Shown here one piece after another: positions 1,256 to 62,236 of a stretch of 64,000 nt of DNA. The DNA is from Candidatus Moraniibacteriota bacterium (GTDB lineage: Bacteria > Patescibacteriota > Minisyncoccia > Moranbacterales > UBA2206), in contig JBAQNP010000020.1 of NCBI GenBank assembly GCA_049303905.1, positions 5,584 to 69,583 of the forward strand. The letters are read 5' to 3'. Under the pieces are notes generated by a model. It was given only the letters and a program-made list of their open reading frames with translations. It was not told the origin of the DNA and did not search any database. Position 1 is the stretch's first letter. Every line of letters begins with the position of its first letter. Made by a program: the position numbers and the translations under genes.

Positions 1256-3154
1256 ATGTCATTACGAGATATTAAGAATAATTTATACAAGAAAGATGCG
1301 CCGGAGAATTTGTCGGAGCATGAGATTAGCAAATACGATCCAGCTGTTGCTAAAGACACCGGAGAGATGAATAAGGGTGAGAGCGATCTTTGGGCAAAAA
1401 AAACAGGACTGGATCAAACCGAAAAAAAAGCCATCAAAAAAGGCGTGATTGCTTTTGCAATTGTTATCGGGATAATTATCGCTTTGGCTATTTTTGCGAT
1501 AGTTCGACAAATTATTTTTCAATCGGGCAATGCCACTATTGAAATTTCTGGCCCTATGCAAGTAAACAGCGGGAAACTTTTGACTTATGAGATAAATTAT
1601 AAAAATGACAATCGACTCACGATAAAAAATGCAGTTTTGCGTATCAATTATCCGGAAAATTTCAAACCGGAAAACAATCCAAATTTCAAGTCTGATAACC
1701 TTACTTCAGGAAGTTTCAATATCGGAACGATCAAGGGTAAAACTCAGGGAAAAATTATTCTAAATGGAAAAGCTTATAGTCCTAAGGGCGCGCTAATTTA
1801 CCTTAAAGCTTCAATGTCGTATAATCCTTCGGGCTATTCCAGTCAATTTCAAACCAATGGACAGTTAGGTGTGAATATTAATTCTGCGCCAATTATTTTG
1901 GAAGTATTGGCTCCTCAAAACGCTTCAAATGGTGATGCAGTTGACTATCAGATAAACTATAAAAACGATGGAGCAGAGGTAATAGAAAATTTGTCAGTTA
2001 AGATAAAATATCCTGATGGGTTCACTTTTTCTTCCGCTAGCCCCAAGACTTCGACGGATAATAATATTTGGAATATTGGAAATATCCCCGCTGGGCATAG
2101 CGGAAAAATAGTTGTGAGTGGAAAACTGGAGGGAGAAAGGGAGAATGTCAAGATGGTTGAGGCAGAAATTGGCGTAATGGAACAAAATGAATTCGTGGCC
2201 TATAACAGTGAAAGCGCTGAAACTAAAATTATTTTTTCTCCATTGACAATTATACAGAGAGTTAACAAAAAAGATAATCTTGTTGTGAATGCGGGAGAGA
2301 CATTGGAATTTGAAGTTGCTTATAAAAACAATGGTAGTGTGGGACTACGCGATGTTATTATCACGGAAAAAATAGATAGCGCACTATTGGATTATTCATC
2401 ACTAAGATTGAAAAATGGAAGTTTTGATACTGACAACAAGACGATTACCTGGAAAGCTTCAGATATAAAAGAGTTAGCCAATTTGGGGGCTAATCAAAGT
2501 GGGATGTTAAATTTTACTATTAAAGTCTCAAATACTTTTCCAGTAGGAGAAGAAAAAGACAAAAATTTTATCATAAAAAGTGTGGCTAAAATTGACAGTC
2601 CAGATGTGCCAACGCCAATTTCTATGAACAAGATAATTTCAAGCAATGAGATTAATATGAAAGTTAACTCAAAAGTGGCGGTGAGTGTCAAGGGATATTA
2701 TGCCGATAAGAGTATTCCAAACTCTGGTCCAATCCCGCCAAAAGTCGGTCAAGAAACAACCTATACAATTCATTGGAAAGCATTGAATATTTCTAATGAT
2801 GTTTCTGGTGCTAAGGTTGTTGCGACTTTGCCAACTAATGCGCAAATGACTGGAAAATTTTTCCCAGAGGGCGCAAATTTGAATTATAATTCCAGAACCA
2901 ATGAAATGGTTTGGACAATTGGGAATATGAAATCTGGCACAGGACTACTTTTTGATTCGCCAGAAGTATCTTTCCAAGTGAAAATAAAACCATCGCCGGA
3001 TCAAGTCGGCAGAGAGGTGGGGCTTCTGGAAAAAACAAACATATTTGCCAAAGATCTTTTTACCGGAGAGGATATCAAAGGAGAATATGAGGCAAAAAAT
3101 ACCAACCTCACAGAAGATAGTTCAATCGTAGGCGGAAATCGGGTAGAGGGTTAG
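1256..3154 (+). CDS. Membrane-anchored surface protein with tandem DUF11/CARDB-like beta-sandwich repeats
   Basis: 632 aa with an N-terminal TM helix (IAFAIVIGIIIALAIFAIV). Repeated blocks (INYKNDN..L.I, INYKNDGAEVIENLSVKIKYPDGF, EFEVAYKNNGSVGLRDVII) match the conserved-repeat-domain pattern. Confidence 0.7.
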   Translation: MSLRDIKNNLYKKDAPENLSEHEISKYDPAVAKDTGEMNKGESDLWAKKTGLDQTEKKAIKKGVIAFAIVIGIIIALAIFAIVRQIIFQSGNATIEISGPMQVNSGKLLTYEINYKNDNRLTIKNAVLRINYPENFKPENNPNFKSDNLTSGSFNIGTIKGKTQGKIILNGKAYSPKGALIYLKASMSYNPSGYSSQFQTNGQLGVNINSAPIILEVLAPQNASNGDAVDYQINYKNDGAEVIENLSVKIKYPDGFTFSSASPKTSTDNNIWNIGNIPAGHSGKIVVSGKLEGERENVKMVEAEIGVMEQNEFVAYNSESAETKIIFSPLTIIQRVNKKDNLVVNAGETLEFEVAYKNNGSVGLRDVIITEKIDSALLDYSSLRLKNGSFDTDNKTITWKASDIKELANLGANQSGMLNFTIKVSNTFPVGEEKDKNFIIKSVAKIDSPDVPTPISMNKIISSNEINMKVNSKVAVSVKGYYADKSIPNSGPIPPKVGQETTYTIHWKALNISNDVSGAKVVATLPTNAQMTGKFFPEGANLNYNSRTNEMVWTIGNMKSGTGLLFDSPEVSFQVKIKPSPDQVGREVGLLEKTNIFAKDLFTGEDIKGEYEAKNTNLTEDSSIVGGNRVEG

Positions 3155-3180
3155 GATGATTTAGTTTCTTTATTTTTCTA

Positions 3181-3245
3181 AATTAACTCACGGTCTAATT
3201 TTCTGGCTAAAAATTTTCCTCAATCGACGGCTGGAGGAAGGGACT
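3181..3245 (+). repeat. Copy 1 of a recurrent hairpin motif (loop core CTCAATCGACGGCTGG) in the tgt 5' region
   Basis: Shares aattaactc...ttctggctaaaaattttcctcaatcgacggctgg with copies at 3297, 4596, 14690 and 60375. Confidence 0.5.
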
Positions 3246-3296
3246 GAAGATTGTTATTAAAAATTAAAAAATAACTCGAAAGCGTATTTTAATAAT

Positions 3297-3340
3297 CAGA
3301 AATTTTCCCTCAATCGACGGCGGATAAGGAAAATTTCTGA
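3297..3340 (+). repeat. Copy 2 of the hairpin motif: 11-bp stem agaaattttcc/ggaaaatttct with 19-nt loop ctcaatcgacggcggataa
   Basis: Perfect inverted repeat around the conserved loop. Itself enclosed by a 19-bp long-range inverted repeat (3246-3265 / 3373-3391). Confidence 0.55.
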
Positions 3341-4712: not shown

Positions 4713-6080
4713 ATGAAAAATTCAATTAATAATAAAAAAATAGAATTACTGGCTCCAGCTGGCTTGCCTCGCCAAAGCAAAAAAAAGACAAAAGTCGAAT
4801 TGCTTGCGCCGGCGGGCAGTATTGAAAAAATGAAATATGCCTTTGCCTATGGCGCGGACGCGGTTTATTTTGGTGTGCCGGATTTTTCTCTTCGTGTAAG
4901 GATTAATAAATTTAGCGAAAAAGATATTTTGGAAGCTGTCTCCTATGCTCATAAGTTAGGCAAAAAAATATATGTGACACTTAATATTTATGCGCATAAT
5001 CAACATTTGGAAAAAGTAGAAAAACATTTGAAGTTTCTTAGGAATATAAAAATCGACGGAATTATCGCTAGTGATCCGGGGATAATAAATTTGGTCAAAA
5101 AATATTTGCCGAAAGTGGACATCCATCTTTCCACTCAAGCTAATGCGACCAATTTTGAGGCGGTGAAATTTTGGAAAAGTTTGGGAGTGAAAAGAATAAT
5201 TTTGGCGCGCGAAGTGACGCTCAAGGAAATTGAAGAAATCGGAAAAAAAGTGAAAGGTATTGAGCTGGAGTATTTTGTTCACGGGGCAATGTGTATGAGT
5301 TATTCCGGTAGGTGTATTCTTTCTAAATGGATAAATGACAAGAGTGCAAACCTTGGAGATTGTACTCAGCCTTGCAGGTGGAAATATCATGAAGCATGTA
5401 GCATGAAACATGAAACAAAAGAAATATCTTTGATAGACAATCAAAAAAGATTCGAGATGGATATTGAAGAGGATCAGCACGGGACATATTTTTTTAATAG
5501 TTACGATATGAATCTGATTTCTCACATGGAAGAATTGGTGAAGGCCGGAATAAGTTCAATGAAAATTGAAGGACGAGCCAAAAGCGTCTATTATGTTGCG
5601 GTAGTGACACGGGCATATAGAAAAGTTTTGGACGCAATTTTGAATAAAAAAAATAGCTCAAAGGAAATTAGGAAAATAATTTCAGAACAAAAGAAAGAGT
5701 TGGATAATTTGGTTCATCGCGGTTATTCCACAGGTTTTCTTTTAGGCAACGAGCCGGCGCATAATTTTGAAGGAAAAATACAAAAGGGAAATTGGGAATT
5801 TGTTGGAGAGGTCATGGGCGTAAATGCAGGGACAGGTTTAAAACCTGTCCGTACTAATATTATGAAAATTCATAATGCAGTTTTGAGGCAGGATAAAATC
5901 GAAGCTATTACGCCGGAGAAAAATATTACACTCAAAATTAAAAAGATATTTAACGATCAGAAAAAAGAAATTTCTGAGGCTCACGGTGGGCATGAAAAAT
6001 TATATTACTTTGAGTTTGATAAGGTTTTGCCGGAGGGGAGTTTGATTAGGAAAAAAATAATTCTACAAAATACAAATTAA
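4713..6080 (+). CDS. Peptidase U32 family protein (PrtC/RlhA-like)
   Basis: 455 aa with ELLAPAG...AVYFG and EYFVHGAMCMSYSGRC motifs typical of U32. The ELLAPAG motif is duplicated at the N-terminus, and the CDS holds an MKHET element at 5388-5421. Confidence 0.8.
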   Translation: MKNSINNKKIELLAPAGLPRQSKKKTKVELLAPAGSIEKMKYAFAYGADAVYFGVPDFSLRVRINKFSEKDILEAVSYAHKLGKKIYVTLNIYAHNQHLEKVEKHLKFLRNIKIDGIIASDPGIINLVKKYLPKVDIHLSTQANATNFEAVKFWKSLGVKRIILAREVTLKEIEEIGKKVKGIELEYFVHGAMCMSYSGRCILSKWINDKSANLGDCTQPCRWKYHEACSMKHETKEISLIDNQKRFEMDIEEDQHGTYFFNSYDMNLISHMEELVKAGISSMKIEGRAKSVYYVAVVTRAYRKVLDAILNKKNSSKEIRKIISEQKKELDNLVHRGYSTGFLLGNEPAHNFEGKIQKGNWEFVGEVMGVNAGTGLKPVRTNIMKIHNAVLRQDKIEAITPEKNITLKIKKIFNDQKKEISEAHGGHEKLYYFEFDKVLPEGSLIRKKIILQNTN

Positions 6081-6108
6081 TTACAAATTTACAAATATAC
6101 AAAACTCT

Positions 6109-6492
6109 ATGAATAATGATGGGGTAATTTATAAAGAATTGAGTTATAAAATAATGGGTGCTATATTTGAAGTATATAATGAGTTGGGGTATGGCTTTAA
6201 AGAAAGATATTATGAAGATGCTATTGCAAAGGAGTTTGATAGGATAAAGTTGGTTTATAAAAGACAATTACCATATAAATTAAAATATAAAAATGAAATA
6301 ATTGGTATTTATAGATTTGATTTTTTGGTTGACGATAAAATTATTATAGAATTAAAACAAGGCGATTTTTATTCAAAGCAAAATTTCACGCAAGCTTTGC
6401 AATATCTGAAGGCAACAAAATTAAAATTAGCAATTTTGATAAATATAACACAAAAAGGAGTAAAATTTAAAAGAATATTAAACATTAAATAG
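6109..6492 (+). CDS. GxxExxY family protein (PD-(D/E)xK nuclease superfamily)
   Basis: 127 aa. The start YKELSYKIMGAIFEVYNELGYGFKERYYEDA and FDFLVDDKIIIELK match the GxxExxY family pattern. Flanked by inverted tacaaat/atttgta word arrays. Confidence 0.75.
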   Translation: MNNDGVIYKELSYKIMGAIFEVYNELGYGFKERYYEDAIAKEFDRIKLVYKRQLPYKLKYKNEIIGIYRFDFLVDDKIIIELKQGDFYSKQNFTQALQYLKATKLKLAILINITQKGVKFKRILNIK

Positions 6493-6549
6493 AATTGCAA
6501 AAATTTGTACATTGGTAAATTTGTATAAATTTGTAATTTGTAGGAAAGT

Positions 6550-7947
6550 ATGGAAAAAGAACAATCGATGATGGAAAAAATAGTGTCGCTTGCCAAGCGC
6601 CGAGGTTTCGTTTACCCAAGCTCGGAAATTTATGGGGGTATGAGTGCGATTTATGATTATGGGCATTATGGAACACTTTTGAAAAATAATATTCGCGACG
6701 CTTGGTGGAAAGAGATGGTGCAAAAACGAATGGATGTTGTTGGGCTTGATAGCGCAATTTTCATGCATCCAAAAACCTGGGTGGCCTCAGGACACGTGAG
6801 TGGTTTTAATGATCCACAAGTCGATTGCAAAAAATGCAAATCTCGTTATCGAGCCGATCATTTACTAGAAGAATTCGGAATTATTATTGATGACAAAACT
6901 CCGATTGAGGAGATAAACAAGAATCTGGATAAATTGCGAGAAGAAAAGAAACTAAAATGTCCTAACTGTGGCTCGATTGAATTGACCGAAGCGAAAGTTT
7001 TTTCTTTGATGGCGAAATCTAATATAGGTTCGCCAACTGACGAACTTAGCGAGGAAAATGTGGTGTATCTTCGGCCGGAAACTTGCGGAGGAATTTATTT
7101 GGAATATAAAAATACGCTTGATTCTCTTCATCCGAAATTGCCGTTTGGCATTGCGCAAGTTGGCAAAGCTTTTAGAAACGAAATTGTGGCGCGTCAATTT
7201 GTTTTCCGCACGCGAGAATTTGAACAAATGGAAATGCAATATTTTTTGCGTCCCGAAATGATGAAGGAAAAATATGAAATGTGGAAAGGGGAACGTTGGA
7301 AATGGTATTTGGAATATGGAATTTCCGAGGAAAATATTCAATGGCACAAACATGAGAAACTAGCGCATTATGCTTCAGAAGCTTATGACATTGAATTTAA
7401 TTTCAAAAGCCTTGGTGGATTTCGTGAAGTGGAAGGAATTCATGCGCGGGGCGATTGGGATTTGTCTCAGCACTCCAAATTTTCTGGCGCTGATCTAACT
7501 TATTTTGATCAAGAAAAAAATGAAAGATTAATCCCACATATCATGGAAACTTCAGTTGGATTGGGTCGGTTATTTTTAATGTTTTTGGATAACGCGTACA
7601 CAGAAGAAGAAGTGAATGGAGAACTGCGAACAGTTTTGAAAATTGACAAGAGACTTGCTCCAATTAAGGTTGCAATTTTGCCCCTATCCAAAAAAGAAGA
7701 ATTGACCATGCCAGCCAAAGAAATTTGGGAAACACTCAAAGAAAATTTTATGGTTGAATATGACGAAACACAATCAATCGGCAAGCGCTATCGTCGACAA
7801 GATGAAATTGGTACGCCCTATTGTGTGACGGTAGATTTCGAAACATTAAATGATCAAGCTGTCACAGTTCGTGATCGTGATACGATGACGCAAGAAAGAA
7901 TTACTATCTCGGAACTTTCAAAGTATTTTGAGGAAAAGTTAAAATAG
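6550..7947 (+). CDS. glyQS: Glycine--tRNA ligase, alpha2 dimeric type
   Basis: 465 aa. N-terminal VSLAKRRGFVYPSSEIYGG and class II core motifs. The true start may be the internal MMEKIV. Confidence 0.9.
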   Translation: MEKEQSMMEKIVSLAKRRGFVYPSSEIYGGMSAIYDYGHYGTLLKNNIRDAWWKEMVQKRMDVVGLDSAIFMHPKTWVASGHVSGFNDPQVDCKKCKSRYRADHLLEEFGIIIDDKTPIEEINKNLDKLREEKKLKCPNCGSIELTEAKVFSLMAKSNIGSPTDELSEENVVYLRPETCGGIYLEYKNTLDSLHPKLPFGIAQVGKAFRNEIVARQFVFRTREFEQMEMQYFLRPEMMKEKYEMWKGERWKWYLEYGISEENIQWHKHEKLAHYASEAYDIEFNFKSLGGFREVEGIHARGDWDLSQHSKFSGADLTYFDQEKNERLIPHIMETSVGLGRLFLMFLDNAYTEEEVNGELRTVLKIDKRLAPIKVAILPLSKKEELTMPAKEIWETLKENFMVEYDETQSIGKRYRRQDEIGTPYCVTVDFETLNDQAVTVRDRDTMTQERITISELSKYFEEKLK

Positions 7948-8239: not shown

Positions 8240-8863
8240 ATGAAAAATAAAAAAACTATACCAAAACAAAAATCACTTTCAATTATTCCGGACGAAAGAA
8301 TTGTAGGAAAAATATATCTGATTCGAGGAGAAAAGGTGATGTTTGATCGTGATTTAGCGGAGCTTTATGAAGTGGAAACAAAAGCATTGAACAGAGCGGT
8401 TAAAAGAAATATAAAAAGATTCCCAGCTGATTTTATGTTTCAGTTGGATAAAAATGAATCTGAAATATTTTCAAGGTACCATTCTGGCACCTTGAAAGAG
8501 GATGCTAACTTGAAGTCACAAATTGTGACTTCAAGAGATGACAAAAACTTGAGGTACCAAATTGGCACTTCAAGGTCACAAATTGTGACCTTGAAGAAAG
8601 GGCAGAATATAAAGTATCGCCCTTATGTTTTTACCGAACAAGGTGTAGCCATGCTGTCAGCTGTTTTGAAGAGTGAGAGAGCAATTGAAGTAAGCATCCA
8701 AATTGTTCGAGTTTTTATAAAAATGAAAAAATTATTGACTACTCATAAAGAACTGCGAGAAAAAATTGAGAAAATGGAAAAATCGAACAAAGAAAATTTC
8801 ACCCCGTTAGAAATTTTTAAAAATAAATATTATGAAATGGTGGTACATTTATGTTTTGCTTAG
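8240..8863 (+). CDS. ORF6N (KilA-N-like) domain protein
   Basis: 207 aa. N-terminus IRGEKVMFDRDLAELYEVETKALNRAVKRNIKRFPADFMFQL is the canonical ORF6N signature, and the C-terminal YVFTEQGVAMLSAVLKSERAIEVSIQIVRVF is conserved. Has an internal duplicated SQIVT segment. Confidence 0.75.
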   Translation: MKNKKTIPKQKSLSIIPDERIVGKIYLIRGEKVMFDRDLAELYEVETKALNRAVKRNIKRFPADFMFQLDKNESEIFSRYHSGTLKEDANLKSQIVTSRDDKNLRYQIGTSRSQIVTLKKGQNIKYRPYVFTEQGVAMLSAVLKSERAIEVSIQIVRVFIKMKKLLTTHKELREKIEKMEKSNKENFTPLEIFKNKYYEMVVHLCFA

Positions 8864-9098
8864 TCTAAAGGATAATAAATGGTATACTGGATATACTGGT
8901 AATCTAAAAAATAGAATTGCAAAACATAATTCTGGAGAAGTATTTTCTACAAAAAACAGGAAGCCATTTAAACTGATATATTCAGAAGCTTGTTTAAATA
9001 AATTAGACGCCCAAGCTCGAGAAAGATATTTAAAATCAGGAATGGGCAAAAGATATCTTAGGAATAGATTAAGATGTTATTTTGATAAAAATGATTAA
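8832..9098 (+). CDS. GIY-YIG nuclease domain protein, small stand-alone
   Basis: 88 aa. YIYVLLS...KWYTGYTGNLKNRIAKHN matches the GIY-YIG motif. Overlaps the 3' end of the ORF6N gene by 32 nt. Confidence 0.7.
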   Translation: MKWWYIYVLLSLKDNKWYTGYTGNLKNRIAKHNSGEVFSTKNRKPFKLIYSEACLNKLDAQARERYLKSGMGKRYLRNRLRCYFDKND

Positions 9099-9162
9099 AA
9101 TTTCTAACGGGGTCCAATCATATTTAAGGTTATTGCGAAATTTATGACAACTAACCCGAAGA

Positions 9163-23906: not shown

Positions 23907-24295
23907 TTGTGGAGATGATGGGAATTGAACCCATGTCCAAAGCTATTCATCTAAAATCCTCTACAAGCTTAGTTAGTTTGTTTAGGTTGGAAGTTATGAA
24001 CTAACAAAATATTCCAACCTTTTTTCTAGTTTAATTTTACTAAATTTGCCTAGAAAATGCAATTTTAGCTATCCTAATGTATAACACCGAGCTCTATCTA
24101 TTAGGAGTGGATAGTTCGATGGCCTCGGCAATTAAGCCAAAGCGTAGGCAAAGTTAGCTGAGAAAGCTTGCGCAATCGCAGTTTTTGCTTTTGAAAATAA
24201 GTTTGCACTTATTGATTTGGTAAAATTTTAACGAGTGATTACCATTCTCGGCTTGCATATTTTAAACGTACAACTTGTCGAAACCAAACATCCCC
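23907..24295 (-). ncRNA. ssrA: tmRNA (SsrA), one-piece
   Basis: The 5' end GGGGATGTTTGGTTTCGACAAG (reverse complement of 24274-24295) matches the tmRNA 5' consensus. The 3' end has T-arm atggg-ttcaatt-cccat and acceptor strand catctcc pairing with ggggatg, including a G3:U wobble. An internal frame reads GCA AAA ACT GCG ATT GCG CAA GCT TTC TCA GCT AAC TTT GCC TAC GCT TTG GCT TAA (tag ending ...ANFAYALA). Sits directly downstream of smpB. Confidence 0.8.
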
Positions 24296-24297
24296 AT

Positions 24298-24744
24298 TTA
24301 TAAATTTTTGAGGATTCGTCTCATTCCTCTCTCGTCTTCTCTTTTCTTGATTTTATCTCGTTTGTCGTATTCCTTTTTGCCTTTTCCGAGACCAAATTCC
24401 AGCTTGATGAGACGTCTTTTAGTATATAATTTAATTGGCACTAATGTCAAGCCTTGGGTGCGAGCTTTGCCAATTAAATGCTTTATTTCTGATTTCTTGA
24501 GCAGAAGCTTTCTTGGGCGAGTCGGATTATGATTGTCGAGCTTGCCAGCGTGAATATAGGGCGGAACATGGGCATTAGTTAAATACAATTCATTGCCATG
24601 GATTGTCACAAAAGACTCTTTGAGGCTCACATGCTTGGTTTTTATCGATTTTACCTCATGACCAAAAAGCTCAATCCCGGCTTCATAGTTTTCCAGAATC
24701 GCATAATCGAAATTCGCGCGCTTGTTTATAGCTAAAATACTCAT
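24298..24744 (-). CDS. smpB: SsrA-binding protein SmpB
   Basis: 148 aa, ...NKRANFDYAILENYEAGIEL.G.EVKS... is typical of SmpB. Confidence 0.9.
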   Translation of the reverse strand: MSILAINKRANFDYAILENYEAGIELFGHEVKSIKTKHVSLKESFVTIHGNELYLTNAHVPPYIHAGKLDNHNPTRPRKLLLKKSEIKHLIGKARTQGLTLVPIKLYTKRRLIKLEFGLGKGKKEYDKRDKIKKREDERGMRRILKNL

Positions 24745-26371: not shown

Positions 26372-27724
26372 ATGAAATTCGCATTGTTCGTATCGCTTAT
26401 GCGTATTGCAATTTTTACTAATAACTATTTACCTAATCCCTATGGCGTGACGCGGTCGATTGAAACATTTCGACGCGAGATGGAAAAACAGGGGAATGAG
26501 GTCTTTATTTTTGCTCCGTACTGGAAAAATTATAAGGATGTCAATAAAAATGTTTTTCGTTTTCCTTCATTTGATATTGAAATTAAATTTCGCTTTCCTT
26601 TGGCGATTCCATATTCCTGGAAAATTGATAAGATAATAAAGAATCTTGATCTGGATGTGATTCATGCTCAGCATCCCAATCTTCTTGGAAGCGTGGCAAT
26701 GAAATGGGCGAAGAGGAAAAAGATTCCCTTGATTTTTACTTGGCACACTCTTTATGATCAATATACTAATTTTGTGCCGTTTGTCCCAGCAAAAATTTCG
26801 GCCGGATATATTATCAAAAAAGCGGTTAAATTTGCTAACTTGGCGGACGCCGTAATTGTGCCGACAGATTCAATCATTCCAATTATTCGAAAATGGGGGG
26901 TGAAAAATTGTCATCCTGAATTTACCTTGCCTACCGGCAGGCAGGTTTCAGGATCTAAAAAAGAGATGCTGAAACAAGTTCAGCATGACAGAATATATGC
27001 TATCCCGACAGGAGTTCTTGAGGAAGAATTTGAAAATCCTGATAGAAATAAAATAAGAAAAAAATATAATATAAAAGATGATGAAACTGTTCTGTTTATG
27101 GTTTCCCGATTAACTGCGGAAAAAAATGTTGAATTTATTTTTCGATCAATTAAGAATATTCTAGCGGACAGTCCGCTAGAGGGCGGACTGTCCGCGCTTA
27201 ATGTTAAATTTCTAGTTGTAGGAGATGGGTATCTCAGGAATAATTTAGAAGAATATTGCCGACGGGAAAATATTTCAGAAAAAATAATTTTTTGCGGAGA
27301 AGTAGAAAGGCAAGAAATTAAAAATTATTTTGCTTCTGCGGATATTTTTGTCTATGGCTCAAAATCAGAAACGCAAGGAATGATAATCACCGAGGCGATG
27401 TATATGGGGCTCCCAATCGTGGCAGTTTCGGCGACCGGGATAAATAGTTTAGTTTTGAATAATGGCAATGGATTTTTAGTAGAAGAAAATTCACCCTGTG
27501 GAATACCGCTACGCGGTAGCGACAAAGTCGCTATTCCACAGGGCGAGAAAGAATTTGAAAAAGCAGTTTTTAAATTGATTAACGACAAAGATTTACGAAA
27601 AAAATTTGGCGAAACTTCCGCGCGTATCGCTAGAATTAATTTCACCTCTTCGATTTGCGCCGAGAAAATTTTGAAAGTTTATAATAACCTTATTGAAAGT
27701 AAAAAAAGACATTATTCTAGATGA
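26372..27724 (+). CDS. Glycosyltransferase family 4 (GT-B, group 1)
   Basis: The C-terminal domain has GSKSETQGMIITEAMYMGLPIVA (the EX7E region). The true start is probably MRIAIF at 26399, because the first 9 codons lie inside a gcgaat-repeat array. The CDS holds three different palindromic insertions (26909-26990, 27160-27196, 27493-27545). Confidence 0.8.
   Translation: MKFALFVSLMRIAIFTNNYLPNPYGVTRSIETFRREMEKQGNEVFIFAPYWKNYKDVNKNVFRFPSFDIEIKFRFPLAIPYSWKIDKIIKNLDLDVIHAQHPNLLGSVAMKWAKRKKIPLIFTWHTLYDQYTNFVPFVPAKISAGYIIKKAVKFANLADAVIVPTDSIIPIIRKWGVKNCHPEFTLPTGRQVSGSKKEMLKQVQHDRIYAIPTGVLEEEFENPDRNKIRKKYNIKDDETVLFMVSRLTAEKNVEFIFRSIKNILADSPLEGGLSALNVKFLVVGDGYLRNNLEEYCRRENISEKIIFCGEVERQEIKNYFASADIFVYGSKSETQGMIITEAMYMGLPIVAVSATGINSLVLNNGNGFLVEENSPCGIPLRGSDKVAIPQGEKEFEKAVFKLINDKDLRKKFGETSARIARINFTSSICAEKILKVYNNLIESKKRHYSR
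26909..26990 (+). repeat. Double-hairpin element family 2 copy, in-frame inside the GT4 gene (encodes CHPEFTLPTGRQVSGSKKEMLKQVQHD)
   Basis: tgtcatcctgaattt...ttcaggatc...gagatgctgaaacaagttcagcatgaca. The same element is intergenic at 31308, 40896 and 53703. This copy also carries an inner ccggcaggcagg palindrome. Confidence 0.7.
27160..27196 (+). repeat. GC-rich perfect 13-bp hairpin (gcggacagtccgc-tagagg-gcggactgtccgc) in-frame in the GT4 gene
   Basis: Seen directly. Encodes LADSPLEGGLSAL. Confidence 0.6.
27493..27545 (+). repeat. Composite palindrome ccctgtggaata...tattccacaggg (family 5) in-frame in the GT4 gene
   Basis: 12-bp terminal inverted repeats enclose two inner palindromes (gctacgcggtagc, agcgacaaagtcgct). 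The same terminal repeat bounds a 94-nt region upstream of glmS. Confidence 0.6.
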
Positions 27725-29976
27725 ATTTTTTCTGAAAACTTTTTAAGGGAATCAGCTATTAGCGGATGCTCTTTTAACTTGGGATCGTTTTCTAATAAAT
27801 ATGCGGCTTCGGCACGGGCGAATTTAATGAGTTTTGTATTGCCTAAATTTTCCATAGCAATATCAGGCAAGCCTGATTGAATGGTGCCAAAGAATTGTCC
27901 TGGACCACGTAATTTCAAATCATGCTCAGAAATTTCAAAACCATCATTGGTTTTTTCCATTATTCTTAAACGCGTAGGGACTAAGCCCCCAATTGGGGAC
28001 TTAGTCCCTGAATTGGCAAACAAAAAACAATAAGATTGCTCTTTTCCTCGTCCAACTCGTCCGCGAAACTGATGCAATTGGGTGAGACCAAATCTCTCGG
28101 CGTTTTCAATGACTATTACAGTTGCATTGGGAATATCGATGCCAACTTCTACTACAGATGTAGAAACTAAAATATCAAAATTTTTATTTTTAAAATCTTC
28201 CATCACTTCTTCTTTTTCTTTAGCTTTCATTTTCCCATGAAGAAGCCCAAGCTTAAATTCAGAAAATATAACTTGGGATAATCTCTCGTGTTCCTCTTTG
28301 ACGGCTTTGACATCGATCATACTTTCAGAAAGTGATTCCTCGACTAATGGCAAAATAACAAAAGCTTGTCGACCTTTTTTTATTTCACTGCGAATGAAAT
28401 CATAGACTTTTTCTCGATCATTCGGGGTAATTATTTTAGTAATAATATTTTTTCTATTTTTAGGCATTTCATCTAAAATTGACAAATCTAAACTGCCAAA
28501 ATAGGCGATGGCCAGCGTTCGTGGAATTGGCGTAGCGGTCATAGTTAAAAGATGGGGGATAACTTTTTTATTCCCATCATCGATATTCATAGTTTCACTT
28601 TGGAGTGTTGCGCGTTGATTGACGCCAAAACGATGCTGTTCATCGATAATCACCAGTGCTAGATTTTTAAATCGAACATCTTTTTGAATTAGCGCGTGAG
28701 TGCCGATAACTAACTGCACTTCATCTGTTTGGATAGATGATAGCAACTCAGAGCGAGTTGTGTTTTTTATAGTTCGAGTATAATTTTTAATTTTCAATTT
28801 GCAATTTTCAATCAATTTTAAATTTTCAATTTTCAAATCTTGATTTACTTTTGGTTCTGAAATTAATTTATATGAGCTAGTTAACAAAGCTATTTTTATA
28901 TTGTAATTTTTAAAAATATCACAAAAACTTTCAAAATGTTGGCGAGCCAAGACTTCTGTTGGCGCCATAAGAGCCGTTTGATATCCGGCGGAAATTGTTT
29001 GTAGTGCGGAAATGGCGGAAACAATTGTTTTTCCAGAACCAACATCACCATTAAGCAGTCGATTCATGGGGCATGGTCTTTCTAAATCTTTCAAAATTTC
29101 GAAAGTTGCCTTTCTTTGAACGTCAGTGAGCTTGAAGGGTAATTCGAGCGTGAATTTCTTAATTAATTTTTCATCAAATTTTATTTTGTTAGAATCTTTT
29201 TCTTTCCAGTTTTTTCTAATTTCCAAAGTTCTGATTTGCACTAGAAACATTTCTTGAAAGGCCATTCTTTTTTGGGCGCGAATAAGCTTTTCCATATCAT
29301 CAGGGAAATGAATTTGCGAGAGGGTAGTATAGATATCGGATAGATTATATTTTTTTCGAATTTCAATAGACAAAATATCAGGTATATTTTTAGCTAAAGG
29401 CAAGAGGGTTTTTATCTGCCAGCGAATCCATTTGGAAGTTATGCCGGAAGTTTCACTGTAGATTGGGACGAGTCTTCCAGTGTTAGTGGCATCGCGAGTG
29501 GATTTTTCAAAGGCAGGATTACTCATAGAAAAATATTTCCCGCCTCGCGCCTGCCTCGCCGAGTCAAGGCGGGTCGACGAGCAGTTGTCTCCGCGAGTCG
29601 AGGCGGGCCCACTCATTCCAAGTTTTCCAGAAAATCTTGCGGTGGAGCCAATGGGAAAATTTTCTAATATATAAGGCTGATTAAACCATACAGCCTTGAG
29701 AAGATTTCCATTTTGATCCTCGAGGACGATTTCCGTGATGGTCATTTTTCGACGAAAGAGTCGATTGTTTTTGGCTTTGATAATTTTGCCTTCGACTGTA
29801 ATAGCTTGCCCAACGAAATCATTTGAAAGCGAAACGGTTTTGGAAAAATCATCATAACGAAAAGGAAGATATAATAAAAGATCTTTGATTGTAAGAAGTC
29901 CGAGTTTTTCCAAAACACGGATATATTTAGGTGTAATGCGGGGGACAGATTTTAGTGAAGTGTTTATGTCTAGCAT
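27712..29976 (-). CDS. recG: ATP-dependent DNA helicase RecG
   Basis: 754 aa with the wedge domain and helicase motifs (DVGSGKT, DEQHRFGV). Contains in-frame insertions: a nested family 1 GC palindrome (29539-29608) and an AT-rich attttcaa repeat block (28783-28838). Confidence 0.9.
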   Translation of the reverse strand: MLDINTSLKSVPRITPKYIRVLEKLGLLTIKDLLLYLPFRYDDFSKTVSLSNDFVGQAITVEGKIIKAKNNRLFRRKMTITEIVLEDQNGNLLKAVWFNQPYILENFPIGSTARFSGKLGMSGPASTRGDNCSSTRLDSARQARGGKYFSMSNPAFEKSTRDATNTGRLVPIYSETSGITSKWIRWQIKTLLPLAKNIPDILSIEIRKKYNLSDIYTTLSQIHFPDDMEKLIRAQKRMAFQEMFLVQIRTLEIRKNWKEKDSNKIKFDEKLIKKFTLELPFKLTDVQRKATFEILKDLERPCPMNRLLNGDVGSGKTIVSAISALQTISAGYQTALMAPTEVLARQHFESFCDIFKNYNIKIALLTSSYKLISEPKVNQDLKIENLKLIENCKLKIKNYTRTIKNTTRSELLSSIQTDEVQLVIGTHALIQKDVRFKNLALVIIDEQHRFGVNQRATLQSETMNIDDGNKKVIPHLLTMTATPIPRTLAIAYFGSLDLSILDEMPKNRKNIITKIITPNDREKVYDFIRSEIKKGRQAFVILPLVEESLSESMIDVKAVKEEHERLSQVIFSEFKLGLLHGKMKAKEKEEVMEDFKNKNFDILVSTSVVEVGIDIPNATVIVIENAERFGLTQLHQFRGRVGRGKEQSYCFLFANSGTKSPIGGLVPTRLRIMEKTNDGFEISEHDLKLRGPGQFFGTIQSGLPDIAMENLGNTKLIKFARAEAAYLLENDPKLKEHPLIADSLKKFSEKIHLE
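29539..29608 (+). repeat. Family 1 GC-rich palindromic element, nested/duplicated copy, in-frame in recG
   Basis: cccgcctcgcg + cctgcctcgccgagtcaaggcggg + tcgacgagcagttgtctccgcgagtcgaggcggg. On the - strand it encodes PASTRGDNCSSTRLDSARQARGG. Confidence 0.75.
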
Positions 29977-31307: not shown

Positions 31308-31371
31308 TGTCATCCTGAATTTATTTCAGGATCTAAACAATAGAGATGCTGAAAGCAAGTTCAGCATGACA
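31308..31371 (+). repeat. Double-hairpin element family 2 copy (intergenic, between the nif3-like and M16 genes)
   Basis: tgtcatcctgaatttatttcaggatc...gagatgctgaaagcaagttcagcatgaca. Confidence 0.7.
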
Positions 31372-36620: not shown

Positions 36621-36674
36621 GCATGTAGCATAAAACATATTTTGTTTCATGCTTCATGTTTCATGCTTCATGTT
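36621..36674 (+). repeat. MKHET-type AT-rich element (catgaaacatg word array), palindromic arrangement in the tatD 5' leader
   Basis: gcatgtagcataaaacat...tttcatgcttcatgtttcatgcttcatg shares gcatgtagcat and catgaaacatg words with the in-CDS copies at 5388, 54003, 54747 and 59741. Confidence 0.6.
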
Positions 36675-37539
36675 GATCGATACCCATGCTCATCTAAATT
36701 TCTCTGCATATAAAAATGATGCGGAAGAAGTAATTGGAAAAACTCTCGCGGAGGGTGTTTTTGTGATTAATGTGGGGTCGCAATATTCGACTAGTGTGCG
36801 GGCGGTGAAGTATGCCAAGAAGTATAATGGGCTATATGCGGCAATTGGAATTCATCCGCTTCATCTTCAGGCGCAAAAATTTTCCTATCATGACCCAGAT
36901 GAAATTGAAGAGGTGGAAATTGAAACAGCTGGAGAAATTTTTGAAAAAGAAAAATATTTGGAATTGGCTAAGAATTCAAAGGTGGTGGCGATTGGAGAAG
37001 TTGGTTTAGATTATCATCATTTCGACCCGCCTCGCGTCGACGAAGCGTCTCCACGAGTCGAGGCGGGTGCCGAGGATAACATTGAAAAATTAAAAGAAAA
37101 GCAGAAAGAAATATTTTTAGAATTTATCAAACTGGCGAATGCTGTGGAAAAACCGATCATGATTCATTGTTGGGACGCCTATGACGATCTATATGAAATG
37201 CTGGAAAAAAATCCAGTAGAGAAAAGAGGTGTGATTCATAGTTTTGTAGGAAGCTATAAAACTGCTAAGAAATTTATCGAGCTTGGCTATTTAATTGGAC
37301 TTAACGGTATAGTGACTTATGGGATAAGTTATGATAAGCTTATTCGCGAAGTTGATTTACGAAATATCATTTTAGAAACGGACTGCCCCTATCTTACTCC
37401 TGTGCCAAAAAAAGGTGAGAGGAATGAGCCGATGTATGTGAAATATGTTGCAATGAAGATAGCGGAAGTTAAGGGAATTCCATTAGAAGAAGTGGAGAAA
37501 ATAACAACAGAAAATGCTAAAAAATTATTTGGAATATAA
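36649..37539 (+). CDS. tatD: TatD family metal-dependent hydrolase
   Basis: IDTHAHL at the N-terminus (likely start ATG 36670), GEVGLDYH motif. Carries a 14-aa in-frame insertion, PPRVDEASPRVEAG, from a GC palindrome. Confidence 0.85.
   Translation: MLHVSCFMLIDTHAHLNFSAYKNDAEEVIGKTLAEGVFVINVGSQYSTSVRAVKYAKKYNGLYAAIGIHPLHLQAQKFSYHDPDEIEEVEIETAGEIFEKEKYLELAKNSKVVAIGEVGLDYHHFDPPRVDEASPRVEAGAEDNIEKLKEKQKEIFLEFIKLANAVEKPIMIHCWDAYDDLYEMLEKNPVEKRGVIHSFVGSYKTAKKFIELGYLIGLNGIVTYGISYDKLIREVDLRNIILETDCPYLTPVPKKGERNEPMYVKYVAMKIAEVKGIPLEEVEKITTENAKKLFGI
37026..37067 (+). repeat. Family 1 GC-rich palindromic element (42 nt) in-frame in tatD
   Basis: cccgcctcgcgtcgacgaagcgtctccacgagtcgaggcggg, 14 codons exactly. 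Confidence 0.75.
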
Positions 37540-40895: not shown

Positions 40896-40964
40896 TGTCA
40901 TCCTGAACTTGTTTCAGGATCTCCGAAACTAAGTACGAGATTCCGAAACAAGTTCGGAATGACA
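40896..40964 (+). repeat. Double-hairpin element family 2 copy (variant) downstream of atpH
   Basis: tgtcatcctgaacttgtttcaggatc...gattccgaaacaagttcggaatgaca. Hairpin B arms have changed (ccgaa instead of gctgaa) but the inverted repeat is preserved. Confidence 0.65.
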
Positions 40965-41063
40965 TAATAGAGATAGAAGTTCTTTGGAAAATTAAAAATA
41001 AAAAAGCCACGTCATCCTAATAATACAGGAATCAGTGGCTTTCGGCTGGCGAGGCGACGATAA

Positions 41064-41279
41064 TTAAGGGGCTGTCTTGATGGCTTGGGCAAGTTCCTCG
41101 TATGTTTTGTACATACTTGGCACCATATTAACCAAGGTCATTGCCCAGCCACCATCAGATATGCAGTTCTCAAGAGAGTGTCCATTGGTTTTCACGAAAT
41201 TTATTTTCTCTTTGGGCGTGCAACCCGCTTCTTTCATTGCCTTTTCGTATGCTTGCAATTTTTCTGCTAAACTGTCCAT
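41064..41279 (-). CDS. Small protein (71 aa) encoded antisense within the atpH-atpA spacer
   Basis: Strong SD aaggaggtg 7 nt upstream of the ATG (MDSLAEKLQAYEKAMKEAGCTPKE...). Its own rho-independent terminator lies downstream (hairpin gccacgtcatcct...aggaatcagtggc + T-run at 41000-41050 on -). No family recognised. Confidence 0.55.
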   Translation of the reverse strand: MDSLAEKLQAYEKAMKEAGCTPKEKINFVKTNGHSLENCISDGGWAMTLVNMVPSMYKTYEELAQAIKTAP

Positions 41280-41475
41280 ATTCTTCACCTCCTTTATAAA
41301 AAAGTTTTAAGGTTATTGAGATGATTACATTGAATCAAATCGTATAAATATAGTATGAAATTAATAAAAAGTCAAATTTTTACTAACATACGAATCTTTC
41401 TAAAATACTAATTCGTACTTTCGCTAGATTCGTACTTTCGTAAATTATAATCTAACTAAAATTTATAAAAACATT

Positions 41476-44397: not shown

Positions 44398-44640
44398 ATG
44401 TACCTCCTTTTAAGGTTAAAAAATACGTTGATTTTCACTAACCTAATATTATACTCCAAATCAACTAAAAAGTCAACCCTTAAATCCTAATCAGTGAATA
44501 ATTGGCTAAAATAAAGCAAAGAATAACTTTTTTACGAATTACGAATTTTATACGAATATACTAATAATATTTTTTTAAAGATTAGTATATTAGTAAAGAG
44601 ATTAGTAATTAGTAAAGACATAACTTAAAATTAATTCTAA

Positions 44641-53702: not shown

Positions 53703-53775
53703 TGTCATCCTGAATTTATTTCAGGATCTTCTAAGGGCGCTTAATTGAGATGCTGAAAACAAGTTCAGTATGACA
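53703..53775 (+). repeat. Double-hairpin element family 2 copy, immediately downstream of glmS
   Basis: tgtcatcctgaatttatttcaggatc...gagatgctgaaaacaagttcagtatgaca. Confidence 0.7.
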
Positions 53776-53789
53776 GACCTTTTAATTTT

Positions 53790-54170
53790 ATGGATATTAG
53801 CTCAATCAAAAACACCCGAGAATTTTTTTGGACGAATCATTCTAAAATGAAACTTCTTCAGTATGGCTTGAGTCCGAGTTCTGTCAAAAGTGTGATCAGG
53901 CGACCTGATCGAACTGAAACTGGCATCGCGCCCAAAACTACGGCGGTGATGAAAAGAAAAGATTCGAAGAAAACTAAAAAAGAGGTTTGGGTGATGATAC
54001 AGAAACATAAAGCATATAACATGAAACATGAAACAAATAAAAAAGAAAAAATGCTTCATGGAGTTAGTTCAAAAACAAAAATAATTTCTGCGTGGATTTA
54101 TCCGGGGGTGAGTCCGAAAGGGAAGGATATTTATGTGCCGGAGGATGTGTGGGGTGCTTTGAATGAATAG
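53790..54170 (+). CDS. Hypothetical protein carrying an MKHET element insertion
   Basis: 126-aa ORF with no recognised family. The internal segment KAYNMKHETNKKEK is encoded by the AT-rich repeat at 54003-54060. Confidence 0.4.
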   Translation: MDISSIKNTREFFWTNHSKMKLLQYGLSPSSVKSVIRRPDRTETGIAPKTTAVMKRKDSKKTKKEVWVMIQKHKAYNMKHETNKKEKMLHGVSSKTKIISAWIYPGVSPKGKDIYVPEDVWGALNE

Positions 54171-54332
54171 AAAAGTTGTTTGGCTTTTTTCCTTACGAAT
54201 TACGAATTTATTACAAATATACGAATGTACGAATAATTAAAAGAATGGGAATGGGTTATTATTTTAAGGTCAAAACTTTATCGATAAAATTGAAATAGGC
54301 TTTATTTAAGGCAAAAAATATATAGAATAATT

Positions 54333-55430
54333 ATGAATATTGAGAAAATCGAACAAATATTAAAAGATCAAAAACAGCCGAAATTTCGCTTGGGGCAGAT
54401 TAAAAAAGCCGTCTATCAAGACGGGATTTCGAGTTTTTCTGAAATTTCGACGATTCCGAAAGAGTTGAGAAGTGTTTTGGAAAAAGAAAGAATACTTTCT
54501 TTTGAAGTGGAAAAAGTTTTAGTTTCAAAGGATGGAAATTCAGCCAAGGCGCTTTTGAAACTAGATGATGGAAACAAAATTGAAACAGTTTTGATTTCTC
54601 CGAAAGCGGATATCTGGTCAGTCTGCATTTCTTGTCAGGTTGGCTGTCCGATGAATTGCGCTTTTTGCGCGACGGGGCAGACGGGATTTAAAAGAAATCT
54701 AACAGCAGAAGAAATAACGGATCAGGTTTTGTTTTGGAAACAATACCTCATGAAGCATGAAACATATAACATGAAACAAAAAACAAATTCAAAATTAAAA
54801 TTATCCAATGTTGTCTATATGGGGATGGGGGAACCATTTTTGAATTGGGGGGAAGTTTTGGAAAGCTTGAAAATTTTGTCAGATCCTAAAGGTATGGCTT
54901 TTGGTTCGCGTTCAATTTCGATTTCGACCGTGGGAATTCCTGGTGGAATAGAAAAATTAACCGAAGATTTCCCACAAGTGAATTTGGCAGTGTCACTTCA
55001 TTTTTCCCAAGATAAAAACAGAAATGAATTTATGCCGGCGAACAAAAATCTAAATTTAGAAAAACTGAAAGTTGAGTTGGAAAAATATTTCGAAAAATCT
55101 AGTCGAAAAATTTTTTTGGAATATATTATGTTTTCCGGGCTCAATGACAGCGAGAAAGATGCAAAAAATCTATTAGAATATATTAAATCTTTCAAAAAAC
55201 CGCAACTCTTGCATGTGAATTTGATTCGATACAACTCTTCGAGCAATAATCAAGAAACAAGAGCCAAGAAACAAAAAATAACAAAAGCAGATAAATTCGT
55301 TTCTTCTAGTGCAGAGCAAGCAGTGAAATTTAGAAATTATCTTCTAGAGAACAAAATTAACTGCACAATCAGAAGAAGTCTTGGTACGGACATCGAAGGA
55401 GCTTGTGGACAGTTGGCAGGAAAAAAATAA
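54333..55430 (+). CDS. rlmN: 23S rRNA (adenine2503-C2)-methyltransferase RlmN (radical SAM)
   Basis: CISCQVGCPMNCAFC cluster and the C-terminal GTDIEGACGQL. Contains an MKHET insertion at 54747-54786. Confidence 0.9.
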   Translation: MNIEKIEQILKDQKQPKFRLGQIKKAVYQDGISSFSEISTIPKELRSVLEKERILSFEVEKVLVSKDGNSAKALLKLDDGNKIETVLISPKADIWSVCISCQVGCPMNCAFCATGQTGFKRNLTAEEITDQVLFWKQYLMKHETYNMKQKTNSKLKLSNVVYMGMGEPFLNWGEVLESLKILSDPKGMAFGSRSISISTVGIPGGIEKLTEDFPQVNLAVSLHFSQDKNRNEFMPANKNLNLEKLKVELEKYFEKSSRKIFLEYIMFSGLNDSEKDAKNLLEYIKSFKKPQLLHVNLIRYNSSSNNQETRAKKQKITKADKFVSSSAEQAVKFRNYLLENKINCTIRRSLGTDIEGACGQLAGKK

Positions 55431-62137: not shown

Positions 62138-62178
62138 ACCCGCCTCGCGTCGACGAGCGTCTCCGCGAGTTGAGGCGG
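62138..62178 (+). repeat. Family 1 GC-rich palindromic element, intergenic copy between parA and parB
   Basis: cccgcctcgcgtcgacgagcgtctccgcgagttgaggcggg. Confidence 0.75.
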
Positions 62179-62236
62179 GCGAATTTATACGAATTTACAA
62201 ATAATTTGGTAATTAAAATATTTTAAAATAAAAATT

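Follow-up and report, generated by a model that had tools for sequence, protein, structure and literature searches.

Tags-outward hairpin pairs, very probably of the CGTC-REP/Ssn-related kind, in and between genes of a Candidatus Moraniibacteriota bacterium

The stretch of DNA considered here (the window) comprises 64,000 nucleotides of a Candidatus Moraniibacteriota bacterium (Patescibacteriota; assembly GCA_049303905.1, contig JBAQNP010000020.1, positions 5,584 to 69,583 of the forward strand) and carries four copies of a short palindromic element. One copy lies inside the coding sequence (CDS) of a GT4-family glycosyltransferase; the other three are intergenic, downstream of a nif3-like gene, of atpH and of glmS (Table 1). 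Each copy is made of two inverted hairpin units, and the four are very probably tags-outward ('HH') pairs of units of the CGTC/TGTC-tagged super-family of repetitive extragenic palindromes (REPs), to which the units known as NTS or Ssn-related motifs (SRMs) correspond.

Four paired elements and their known relatives

The unit is 24-25 nt long and consists of a TGTC tag, an 8-bp stem starting with A-T and T-A pairs, a loop of 5-6 nt, and a tail whose first base is C. A scan of the whole 64 kb for GTC followed by an 8-bp stem and a 4-6-nt loop returns 7 units, every one of them within the four elements and none elsewhere; the eighth, 26910-26954(+), is missed for the sole reason that its loop is 26 nt long. 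TGTC stands directly ahead of the stem in all 7 scanned units as well as in the long-loop unit at 26909, and C directly follows the palindrome in all units, the tails reading CTC, CTA or CTT. Five units have 5-nt loops and two have 6-nt loops; in the remaining one the loop measures 26 nt. Tags point outward in 4 of 4 elements, which share a single orientation on the + strand, and the spacers between paired units measure 13-24 nt. (As a simple measure of enrichment, the 11-mer GTCATCCTGAA, with at most one mismatch, occurs 8 times against 0.93 expected, a number reached in 0 of 100 shuffles.)

Table 1. Coordinates, within the window, of the paired hairpin elements, the gene that hosts copy 1, and a separate GIY-YIG cassette
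Feature	Position	Strand	Remarks
Host gene of copy 1, GT4-family glycosyltransferase	26372..27724	+	450 aa; homologues 381-420 aa
Copy 1	26909..26989	+	tags-outward pair inside the GT4 CDS, in frame; encodes C180-D206
Copy 1, first unit	26910-26954	+	GTC 26910-26912; stem 26913-26920 / 26947-26954; 26-nt loop
Copy 1, 21-nt loop insertion CCTTGCCTACCGGCAGGCAGG	26925..26945	+	itself a small hairpin; adds TLPTGRQ; not found in the orthologous element on a related Moranbacteria contig
Copy 1, second unit	26966-26989	-	opposite strand; in unit scan
Copy 2	31308..31371	+	8 nt past the nif3-like stop; 6 nt ahead of the M16 peptidase ATG (31377)
Copy 2, first unit	31309-31332	+	in unit scan
Copy 2, second unit	31346-31370	-	in unit scan
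Copy 3	40896..40964	+	48 nt past the atpH stop; flanked by atpH and a small convergent open reading frame (ORF)
Copy 3, first unit	40897-40920	+	in unit scan
Copy 3, second unit	40940-40963	-	in unit scan; covarying stem ATTCCGAA/TTCGGAAT
Copy 4	53703..53775	+	7 nt past the glmS stop
Copy 4, first unit	53704-53727	+	in unit scan
Copy 4, second unit	53750-53774	-	in unit scan; one stem mismatch, 6-nt loop
GIY-YIG cassette	8802-9112	+	ORF 8832-9098 (+, 88 aa); perfect 15-bp inverted repeat CCCCGTTAGAAATTT (8802-8816) / AAATTTCTAACGGGG (9098-9112)

The first-unit stem is ATCCTGAA in all four elements. Second-unit stems are more varied: ATGCTGAA in two elements, ATACTGAA/TTCAGCAT with one mismatch in another, and the fully compensated ATTCCGAA/TTCGGAAT in copy 3. 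Across these stem types (ATCCTGAA, ATGCTGAA, ATTCCGAA and ATACTGAA) pairing is perfect in 7 of the 8 units. An earlier note, made from the sequence alone, had already placed four copies at these sites, and all of them are found there, both in frame in a CDS and downstream of genes, as a repeated family with inverted TGTCAT/ATGACA ends and two internal hairpins; the compensatory replacement of ATGCTGAA/TTCAGCAT in copy 3 that it pointed out is likewise real. Two of its details need adjusting. Copy 1 is in frame and inside the CDS as claimed, but its end belongs at 26989, since 26990 takes in one base of the next codon. The description of the intergenic copies as immediately following a stop codon fits those behind the nif3-like gene and glmS, but not copy 3 (see Table 1 for the distances).

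The CGTC-tagged super-family was defined by Di Nocera, De Gregorio and Rocco (2013; BMC Genomics 14:522; PMC3733652). Its units have a tag that is CGTC, often TGTC (or CCTC), a stem of 8-9 bp starting A-T, T-A, a loop of 4-5 nt and a 3-nt tail with the consensus CCA. They number from tens to thousands per genome, predominantly as HH dimers, are placed at under 20 bp from the 3' end of the preceding ORF, and include in-frame intragenic dimers that encode 20-30 aa. No dedicated transposase of CGTC repeats, and no RAYT flanked by CGTC units, was found (PMC3733652). The elements of the window share the unpaired tag, the 8-bp A-T/T-A stem, the 5-nt loop and the short tail, and they share the arrangement too: HH dimers, mostly heterodimers, just downstream of ORFs, an in-frame intragenic dimer, and no transposase nearby. 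They differ from the family in the tail, which is CTN rather than CCA, so that the first C alone agrees, in spacers that are usually 20-100 nt long in the family, and in their host, Patescibacteria not being among the five phyla listed for CGTC repeats. (Copies of the same hairpin in Sphingomonads do have the tail CCA.) Going by the wording with which the 8-bp-stem/5-nt-loop class 'CGTC-2' is described in the text of that paper, the window units probably belong to it.

The super-family takes in Rickettsia RPE-4 and RPE-6 (which are CGTC-4 and CGTC-1, respectively) and the Neisseria repeat dRS3 (PMC3733652), and each of these leads to a further comparison. By description, the RPEs, palindromic repeats standing in frame in conserved protein genes of a reduced-genome bacterium, where they add roughly 20-30 residues at tolerated sites, resemble copy 1; on the other hand, the best-known in-frame element, RPE-1, is longer and unrelated in sequence (PMC3733652), and the host lineage is another. 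NTS are oriented dRS3 units of the form CGTCATTCCCGCG...GCGGGAATC, for which SRMs are the counterparts in many phyla (Chenal et al. 2025, Nat Commun 16:2388; PMC11893778). The Neisseria protein SsnA, a 94-aa single-domain GIY-YIG nuclease, binds this hairpin solely as single-stranded DNA (ssDNA), not as double-stranded DNA, RNA or the reverse strand, and cleavage by Ssn takes place a few nucleotides upstream of the tag; it is controlled by the three bases ahead of the palindrome (GTC), and binding by the C after it, while the loop is dispensable and can be extended (PMC11893778). The ssDNA-only mode of binding and cleavage was demonstrated just for the Neisseria and Wolbachia homologues. The system modulates natural transformation, and the ssn gene typically sits between inverted units, in an arrangement resembling a tiny insertion sequence (PMC11893778). 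That paper cites neither the CGTC-REP paper nor the RPEs, and does not mention Patescibacteria. The window units agree with SRM/NTS in being oriented hairpins with GTC upstream and C right after the palindrome, in tolerating an extended loop, and in that both of their stem types flank ssn-like genes in metagenomic contigs. They differ in the share of intragenic copies, about 2% for NTS in N. meningitidis versus 1 of 4 here. The features that the nuclease reads (GTC, stem and C) are exactly those that are invariant or covarying in the window.

Other catalogues have little to say about these elements. At gathering thresholds Rfam returns a tmRNA and two tRNAs from the window and nothing at the elements; a permissive Rfam scan of two copies gives generic hairpin (miRNA-precursor) matches only, far below threshold. 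Searching the literature by sequence and peptide (GTCATCCTGAA, LKQVQHD and others) brings up unrelated primer matches only, and an annotated phage collection holds no match. Nor do the elements qualify as classical miniature inverted-repeat transposable elements: the flanks of the four copies (AAAAAT...GAATAT, CGCAAG...ATATTA, AAAAAT...TAATAG and ATTCT...GACCTT) contain no direct repeat that would represent a target-site duplication.

Distribution and pairing of the hairpins

Over 119 species-level genome contigs, spanning no fewer than 10 phyla, carry the exact first hairpin, GTCATCCTGAA-N5-TTCAGGATC; it is also present on 60 IMG/VR contigs and in plasmids from cultured Sphingomonads, Treponema and Sulfurovum. 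Among the matches listed, 13 of 80 are Patescibacteria metagenome-assembled genomes (MAGs); the hairpin also occurs there in Sphingomonads, Flavobacteriia and other Bacteroidota, Gastranaerophilales, Treponema and Elusimicrobiota, and in Campylobacterota, Gammaproteobacteria, Firmicutes and Acidobacteria. This AT-rich variant, with its ATCCTGAA and ATGCTGAA units, is nucleotide-identical across at least 10 phyla, plasmids and viral contigs. In foreign loci an inverted partner ending in ATGAC often follows 3-96 nt downstream. A separate observation concerns IMG/VR contigs that bear several copies: orientation is uniform within a contig (7 copies on L142 and 4 on L158, all +; 5 on L139 and 3 each on L141 and L156, all -), and copies lie beside phage genes for portal, terminase and capsid proteins. 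The spread across phyla may have phages as vectors.

For an analysis of pairing, partner hairpins from other phyla were selected through an anchor that does not constrain the inner six pairs. In these, 95% of cells pair, and 7 of the 8 pairs have changes on both sides, the third pair being found as U-A, G-C, C-G and A-U. None of 500 shuffles matches this covariation, and no slid control comes close. G-U pairs are rare (2 cells, as against 50 double changes). A covariance model built solely from 40 of the foreign partner hairpins recovers the seven canonical units of the window with scores of 27-43 bits and E-values from 1e-7 to 3e-4; the match that comes next in the window is unrelated and has E > 1.

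As to which structure is selected, ViennaRNA folds each whole element of the window preferentially as a single long hairpin rather than as two (z from -5.7 to -7.7). Heterodimers separate the two structures: over 44 of them the local hairpin pairs in 93.6% of cells and the long-range pairing in 77.3%, which implies selection on each unit's own hairpin. The single long hairpin, although thermodynamically favoured, is accordingly rejected as the selected structure, and selection on the local hairpins is strongly supported. (Wobble mismatches read in unit orientation, G·T 21 versus A·C 8, would suggest folding of the tag-first strand; the excess is too weak to use.)

The earlier note had proposed selection on the structure of either RNA or DNA. 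Its structural half, and the compensatory changes on which it relied, hold; the RNA half has become less likely because the Ssn family is specific for ssDNA (PMC11893778), because the orientation of units across taxa shows no bias with respect to transcription, and because G-U pairs are rare. Selection most likely concerns DNA structure rather than RNA structure.

The suggestion that the intergenic copies double as terminators does not survive inspection. Scoring of the transcribed (+) strand finds none of the four copies terminator-like, and a T-run is missing after the second hairpin; the stems have only 3 G-C pairs apiece and are followed by ACAGAA, ACAATA, ACATAA or ACAGAC, and the ATG at 31377 begins 6 nt past copy 2. 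The broader proposal, that the elements are mainly transcribed RNA structures (terminators or stabilisers of mRNA 3' ends) conserved for their RNA folding, can draw on the 7-8 nt that separate two of the three intergenic copies from a stop codon, on the stability of the whole-element folds, and on the argument that many REPs are transcribed (PMC3733652). Units across taxa also avoid divergent intergenic regions (18 divergent, 33 convergent, 92 unidirectional), as that proposal would have it, but their orientation relative to the neighbouring genes is unbiased. With the missing U-tract and terminator-like match, the start codon so close behind copy 2, one copy lying within a CDS, G-U pairs almost unused, and an associated nuclease that ignores RNA (PMC11893778), a mainly RNA-level function is improbable, and an RNA role is not needed for the elements.

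The copy in the glycosyltransferase gene, and other features of the window

Aligned with 21 homologues, the GT4 protein has 27 aa at C180-D206 (81 nt, 26909-26989) where 19 of the 21 have a single residue. That this segment is a 27-aa insertion not conserved in distant GT4 homologues, as the earlier note had supposed, is thereby confirmed. At this site an insertion seven residues shorter is present in one relative, P0002 from a Moranbacteria MAG; in the DNA, those seven residues correspond to a clean 21-nt indel within the first hairpin's loop. What makes the GT4 copy longer is thus a 21-nt loop insertion, of which the window holds no other copy. Loops with an extra nested palindrome of unrelated sequence are also seen in several phyla (L004, L006, L034, L062, L072, L077, L090 and L103) and are comparable to the insert at 26925-26945; a few of these long-gap pattern matches could be chance. 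It appears that hairpin loops repeatedly undergo secondary insertion or expansion.

The orthologous GT4 elements are identical at 59 of 61 positions (96.7%), compared with 81.7% for the flanking coding sequence (Fisher p = 0.0017), in which third positions differ at 34% between the orthologues. The nucleotides of the element are therefore held more tightly than the surrounding gene. In the AlphaFold model (mean pLDDT 79) residues 180-205 have pLDDT < 50 and connect the two Rossmann-like halves of the enzyme, with the N-terminal half ending in a helix at 166-174 and the C-terminal half opening with a strand at 208-210. On this model the insertion site looks like a permissive inter-domain linker.

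It might be argued that the insertion is instead a selected protein module and its peptide, CHPEF...EMLKQVQHD, functional, seeing that it is in frame at the same site in two Moranbacteria. That is extremely improbable: the same DNA is non-coding at three sites of the window and is elsewhere read in other frames or from the other strand, the peptide is predicted to be disordered, 19 of 21 homologues do without it, and in P0017 this inter-domain position is taken by another insert, VKSPQSGDAEGVFNRVK.

Repeat-derived peptides seem to be inserted commonly in this protein family of the candidate phyla radiation (CPR). Near residue 42, for example, a GPASTRG...STRG insert is seen in both P0003 and P0088. 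The GT4 gene itself has two more inserts that are lineage-specific: 27164-27195 is a G+C-rich hairpin with a 14-bp stem that encodes ADSPLEGGLSA and is patchily present in P0003, P0019, P0034 and P0064; 27491-27544 encodes an 18-aa segment, SPCGIPLRGSDKVAIPQG, partly of low pLDDT and patchily present in P0001, P0021, P0046, P0051 and P0097. Together with copy 1, the gene thus holds three different palindromic insertions.

Elsewhere in the window a third palindromic family, G+C-rich and of the form ACCCGCCTCGCGTCGACGAG-CGTCTCCGCGAGTCGAGGCGGG, occurs at 29560-29607, 37025-37067 and 62138-62179; one site is in the RecG gene (- strand ORF 27712-29976), one in ORF 36649-37539 and one intergenic. 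It is probably what the earlier note called its first in-CDS family. The ATP synthase operon is interrupted by a small convergent ORF (41064-41288, -, 74 aa) inserted between atpH and atpA and accompanied by a bidirectional terminator-like hairpin, AAAAAAGCCAC...GTGGCTTT, at about 41005-41045. Short A+T-rich iterated motifs, CATGAAACATGAAACAA and TTACGAATTACGAAT (5384-5432, 54002-54050, 54738-54800, 44532-44565 and 54193-54226), are intergenic and upstream of genes, and may be promoter or regulatory repeats. The tmRNA gene (tag ANLFSKAKTAIAQAFSANFAYALA) directly adjoins smpB, the two at 23907-24295 (-) and 24298-24744 (-). Two contigs of the Logan assembly SRR28062879, L269 and L270, cover the same genome region in pieces of about 1 kb only.

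Ssn-like nucleases and the persistence of the pairs

Genes found between inverted units are mostly ordinary. All-against-all clustering of 3137 ORFs from 179 element-bearing loci groups ABC transporters and phage structural genes only and yields no recurrent transposase family; the only recurrent small gene is a GIY-YIG ORF, within unit clusters in three loci. This bears on the relation to REPIN-RAYT systems, in which two inverted hairpin repeats likewise form a non-autonomous unit and which, like Ssn, combine a single-copy nuclease or transposase gene flanked by repeats with recognition of ssDNA hairpins. REPINs differ from the window pairs in having a GTAG tag and a Y1 HUH transposase in place of (C/T)GTC and GIY-YIG. 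The reading of the elements as strict REPINs, in which a RAYT (an IS200/IS605-like Y1 HUH transposase) moves inverted REP pairs, would account for two inverted hairpins with an unpaired tag and for hairpin recognition as ssDNA, which is also the RAYT mode (PMC3337134, PMC6006769). It is nonetheless very improbable, given the tag, the lack of any RAYT flanked by CGTC units (PMC3733652), and a clustering that yields GIY-YIG as the sole recurrent small gene between units and no transposase family.

The association of the units with GIY-YIG genes can be examined from the side of the protein. In 80 metagenomic loci fetched solely by similarity to the small GIY-YIG protein, perfect GTC-tagged units have a density of 3.84/kb within 150 nt of the ssn-like gene and 1.82/kb at 150-300 nt, falling to 0.05-0.27/kb beyond 600 nt. 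The control tags GAC, CTG, GTG and TCG stay at or below 0.13/kb; CAG reaches 0.57/kb, which is attributed to partial copies of the same repeat (tCAGGATGAC). Units lie on both sides of the gene in 29 of the 48 evaluable loci, tags-outward being the commonest arrangement (15 of the 29), and C follows the palindrome in 96 of the 99 units beside ssn-like genes. Ranked by frequency, the flanking stems are ATGCTGAA first, the Neisseria stem ATTCCCGC second and ATCCTGAA third. On contig L182 an ssn-like gene (3032-3322) stands amid the same A/B heterodimers as are found in the window. The proteins of this SRM-flanked type are Pfam GIY-YIG. The unit type of the window is thus associated with ssn-like genes in other genomes, which reproduces the published association independently. 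(What these neighbourhoods can look like is illustrated by L093, where 5947-6819 holds an ssn-like GIY-YIG gene within a dense array of at least three different CGTC-tagged unit types, among them tandem runs of CGTCATTGCGGCGTAGGCCG.AATCTC and short tandem fragments of TCAGGATGACGATAAATG.)

The window pairs are probably gene-less, miniature, non-autonomous derivatives of the unit-ssn-unit arrangement. They would have spread, or been inherited, as selfish DNA, and would persist at sites where little harm results, shortly behind stop codons or in frame in a permissive inter-domain loop of GT4, and an Ssn-type enzyme may interact with them in this organism. A nuclease that reads stem and tag would explain why stem changes are compensated, why GTC and C are invariant, and why a 21-nt loop insertion is tolerated.

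Several observations weigh against this interpretation. The published SRM pattern, HGTCWYN(0-2)YYVSBRHN(0-5)WNVSBRGN(0-2)RNCYNB, has no match in the window, although a Neisseria NTS control matches. (The AT-rich stems ATCCTGAA, ATGCTGAA and ATTCCGAA fail this degenerate pattern; it was derived from G+C-rich stems, and is therefore better taken as a search heuristic than as a functional definition.) No ssn gene flanked by GTCAT-type units is present in the 64 kb. The window's sole small GIY-YIG ORF (8832-9098) is 33% identical to the SRM-flanked type, has another inverted repeat at its flanks, and has no GTCAT unit within 17 kb. Only four pairs (8 units) are visible, within 64 kb. The literature demonstrates no copying mechanism for CGTC/SRM repeats, Di Nocera et al. 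finding no transposase and Chenal et al. noting a resemblance to insertion sequences only. The copies could also be inert relics, as taken up below.

GIY-YIG ORF 8832-9098 was considered as the cognate nuclease of the window units and set aside. Its homologues on five other contigs are flanked by CCCCGTTAGAAATTT and not by GTCAT units (among them the unrelated metagenomic contigs L262, L263, L267 and L268), which probably represents a different pairing. The left arm of the repeat lies within the 3' end of the upstream ORF 8240-8863, and the window contains no further copies of this 15-bp repeat. The segment 8802-9112 looks like a separate small mobile GIY-YIG cassette, and is possibly another nuclease-motif pair.

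If the copies were inert fossils of an ancient invasion, merely tolerated and interacting with no protein at present, one would expect what is in part observed: no cognate nuclease gene in the window, a stem mismatch in one unit (53750-53774) and in the orthologous copy in L120, and only four copies in the window with no solo units. One would not expect the orthologous GT4 copies to have stayed so much closer to each other than their flanks and the third positions in them, tag, stem and tail to be intact in 7 of 8 units, or the stem of copy 3 to be fully compensated. The fossil explanation is possible but unlikely.

The elements are of an already described kind, CGTC-REP, equivalent to SRM/NTS and RPE-like when in a CDS, a family that the earlier note missed. 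No new kind of element is revealed, and what is new is modest: the Patescibacteria host, a stem variant missed by the published SRM pattern, and a copy within a CDS that is conserved between orthologues beyond the level of its flanks. Patescibacteria are dependent on DNA uptake. It is conceivable, if rather unlikely, that the AT-rich variant is an actively and horizontally spreading Ssn-hairpin element that has entered these bacteria, that its pairs serve as self/non-self marks for single-strand restriction of incoming DNA, and that the in-CDS copy is kept by selection at the nucleotide level.

For the family, these observations join two literatures without mutual citation, that on CGTC-REP and RPEs (2013) and that on NTS/SRM and Ssn (2025), and show that an AT-rich variant, found widely in Bacteroidota, Sphingomonads, Patescibacteria and viral contigs, is under-counted by the published SRM motif. 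For annotation, they account for odd 'hypothetical' peptides (CHPELVSGS, EMLKQVQHD) and for conserved CPR proteins that differ in length. The candidate phyla radiation is thereby added to the range of a hairpin-repeat/nuclease system whose characterisation dates only from 2025.

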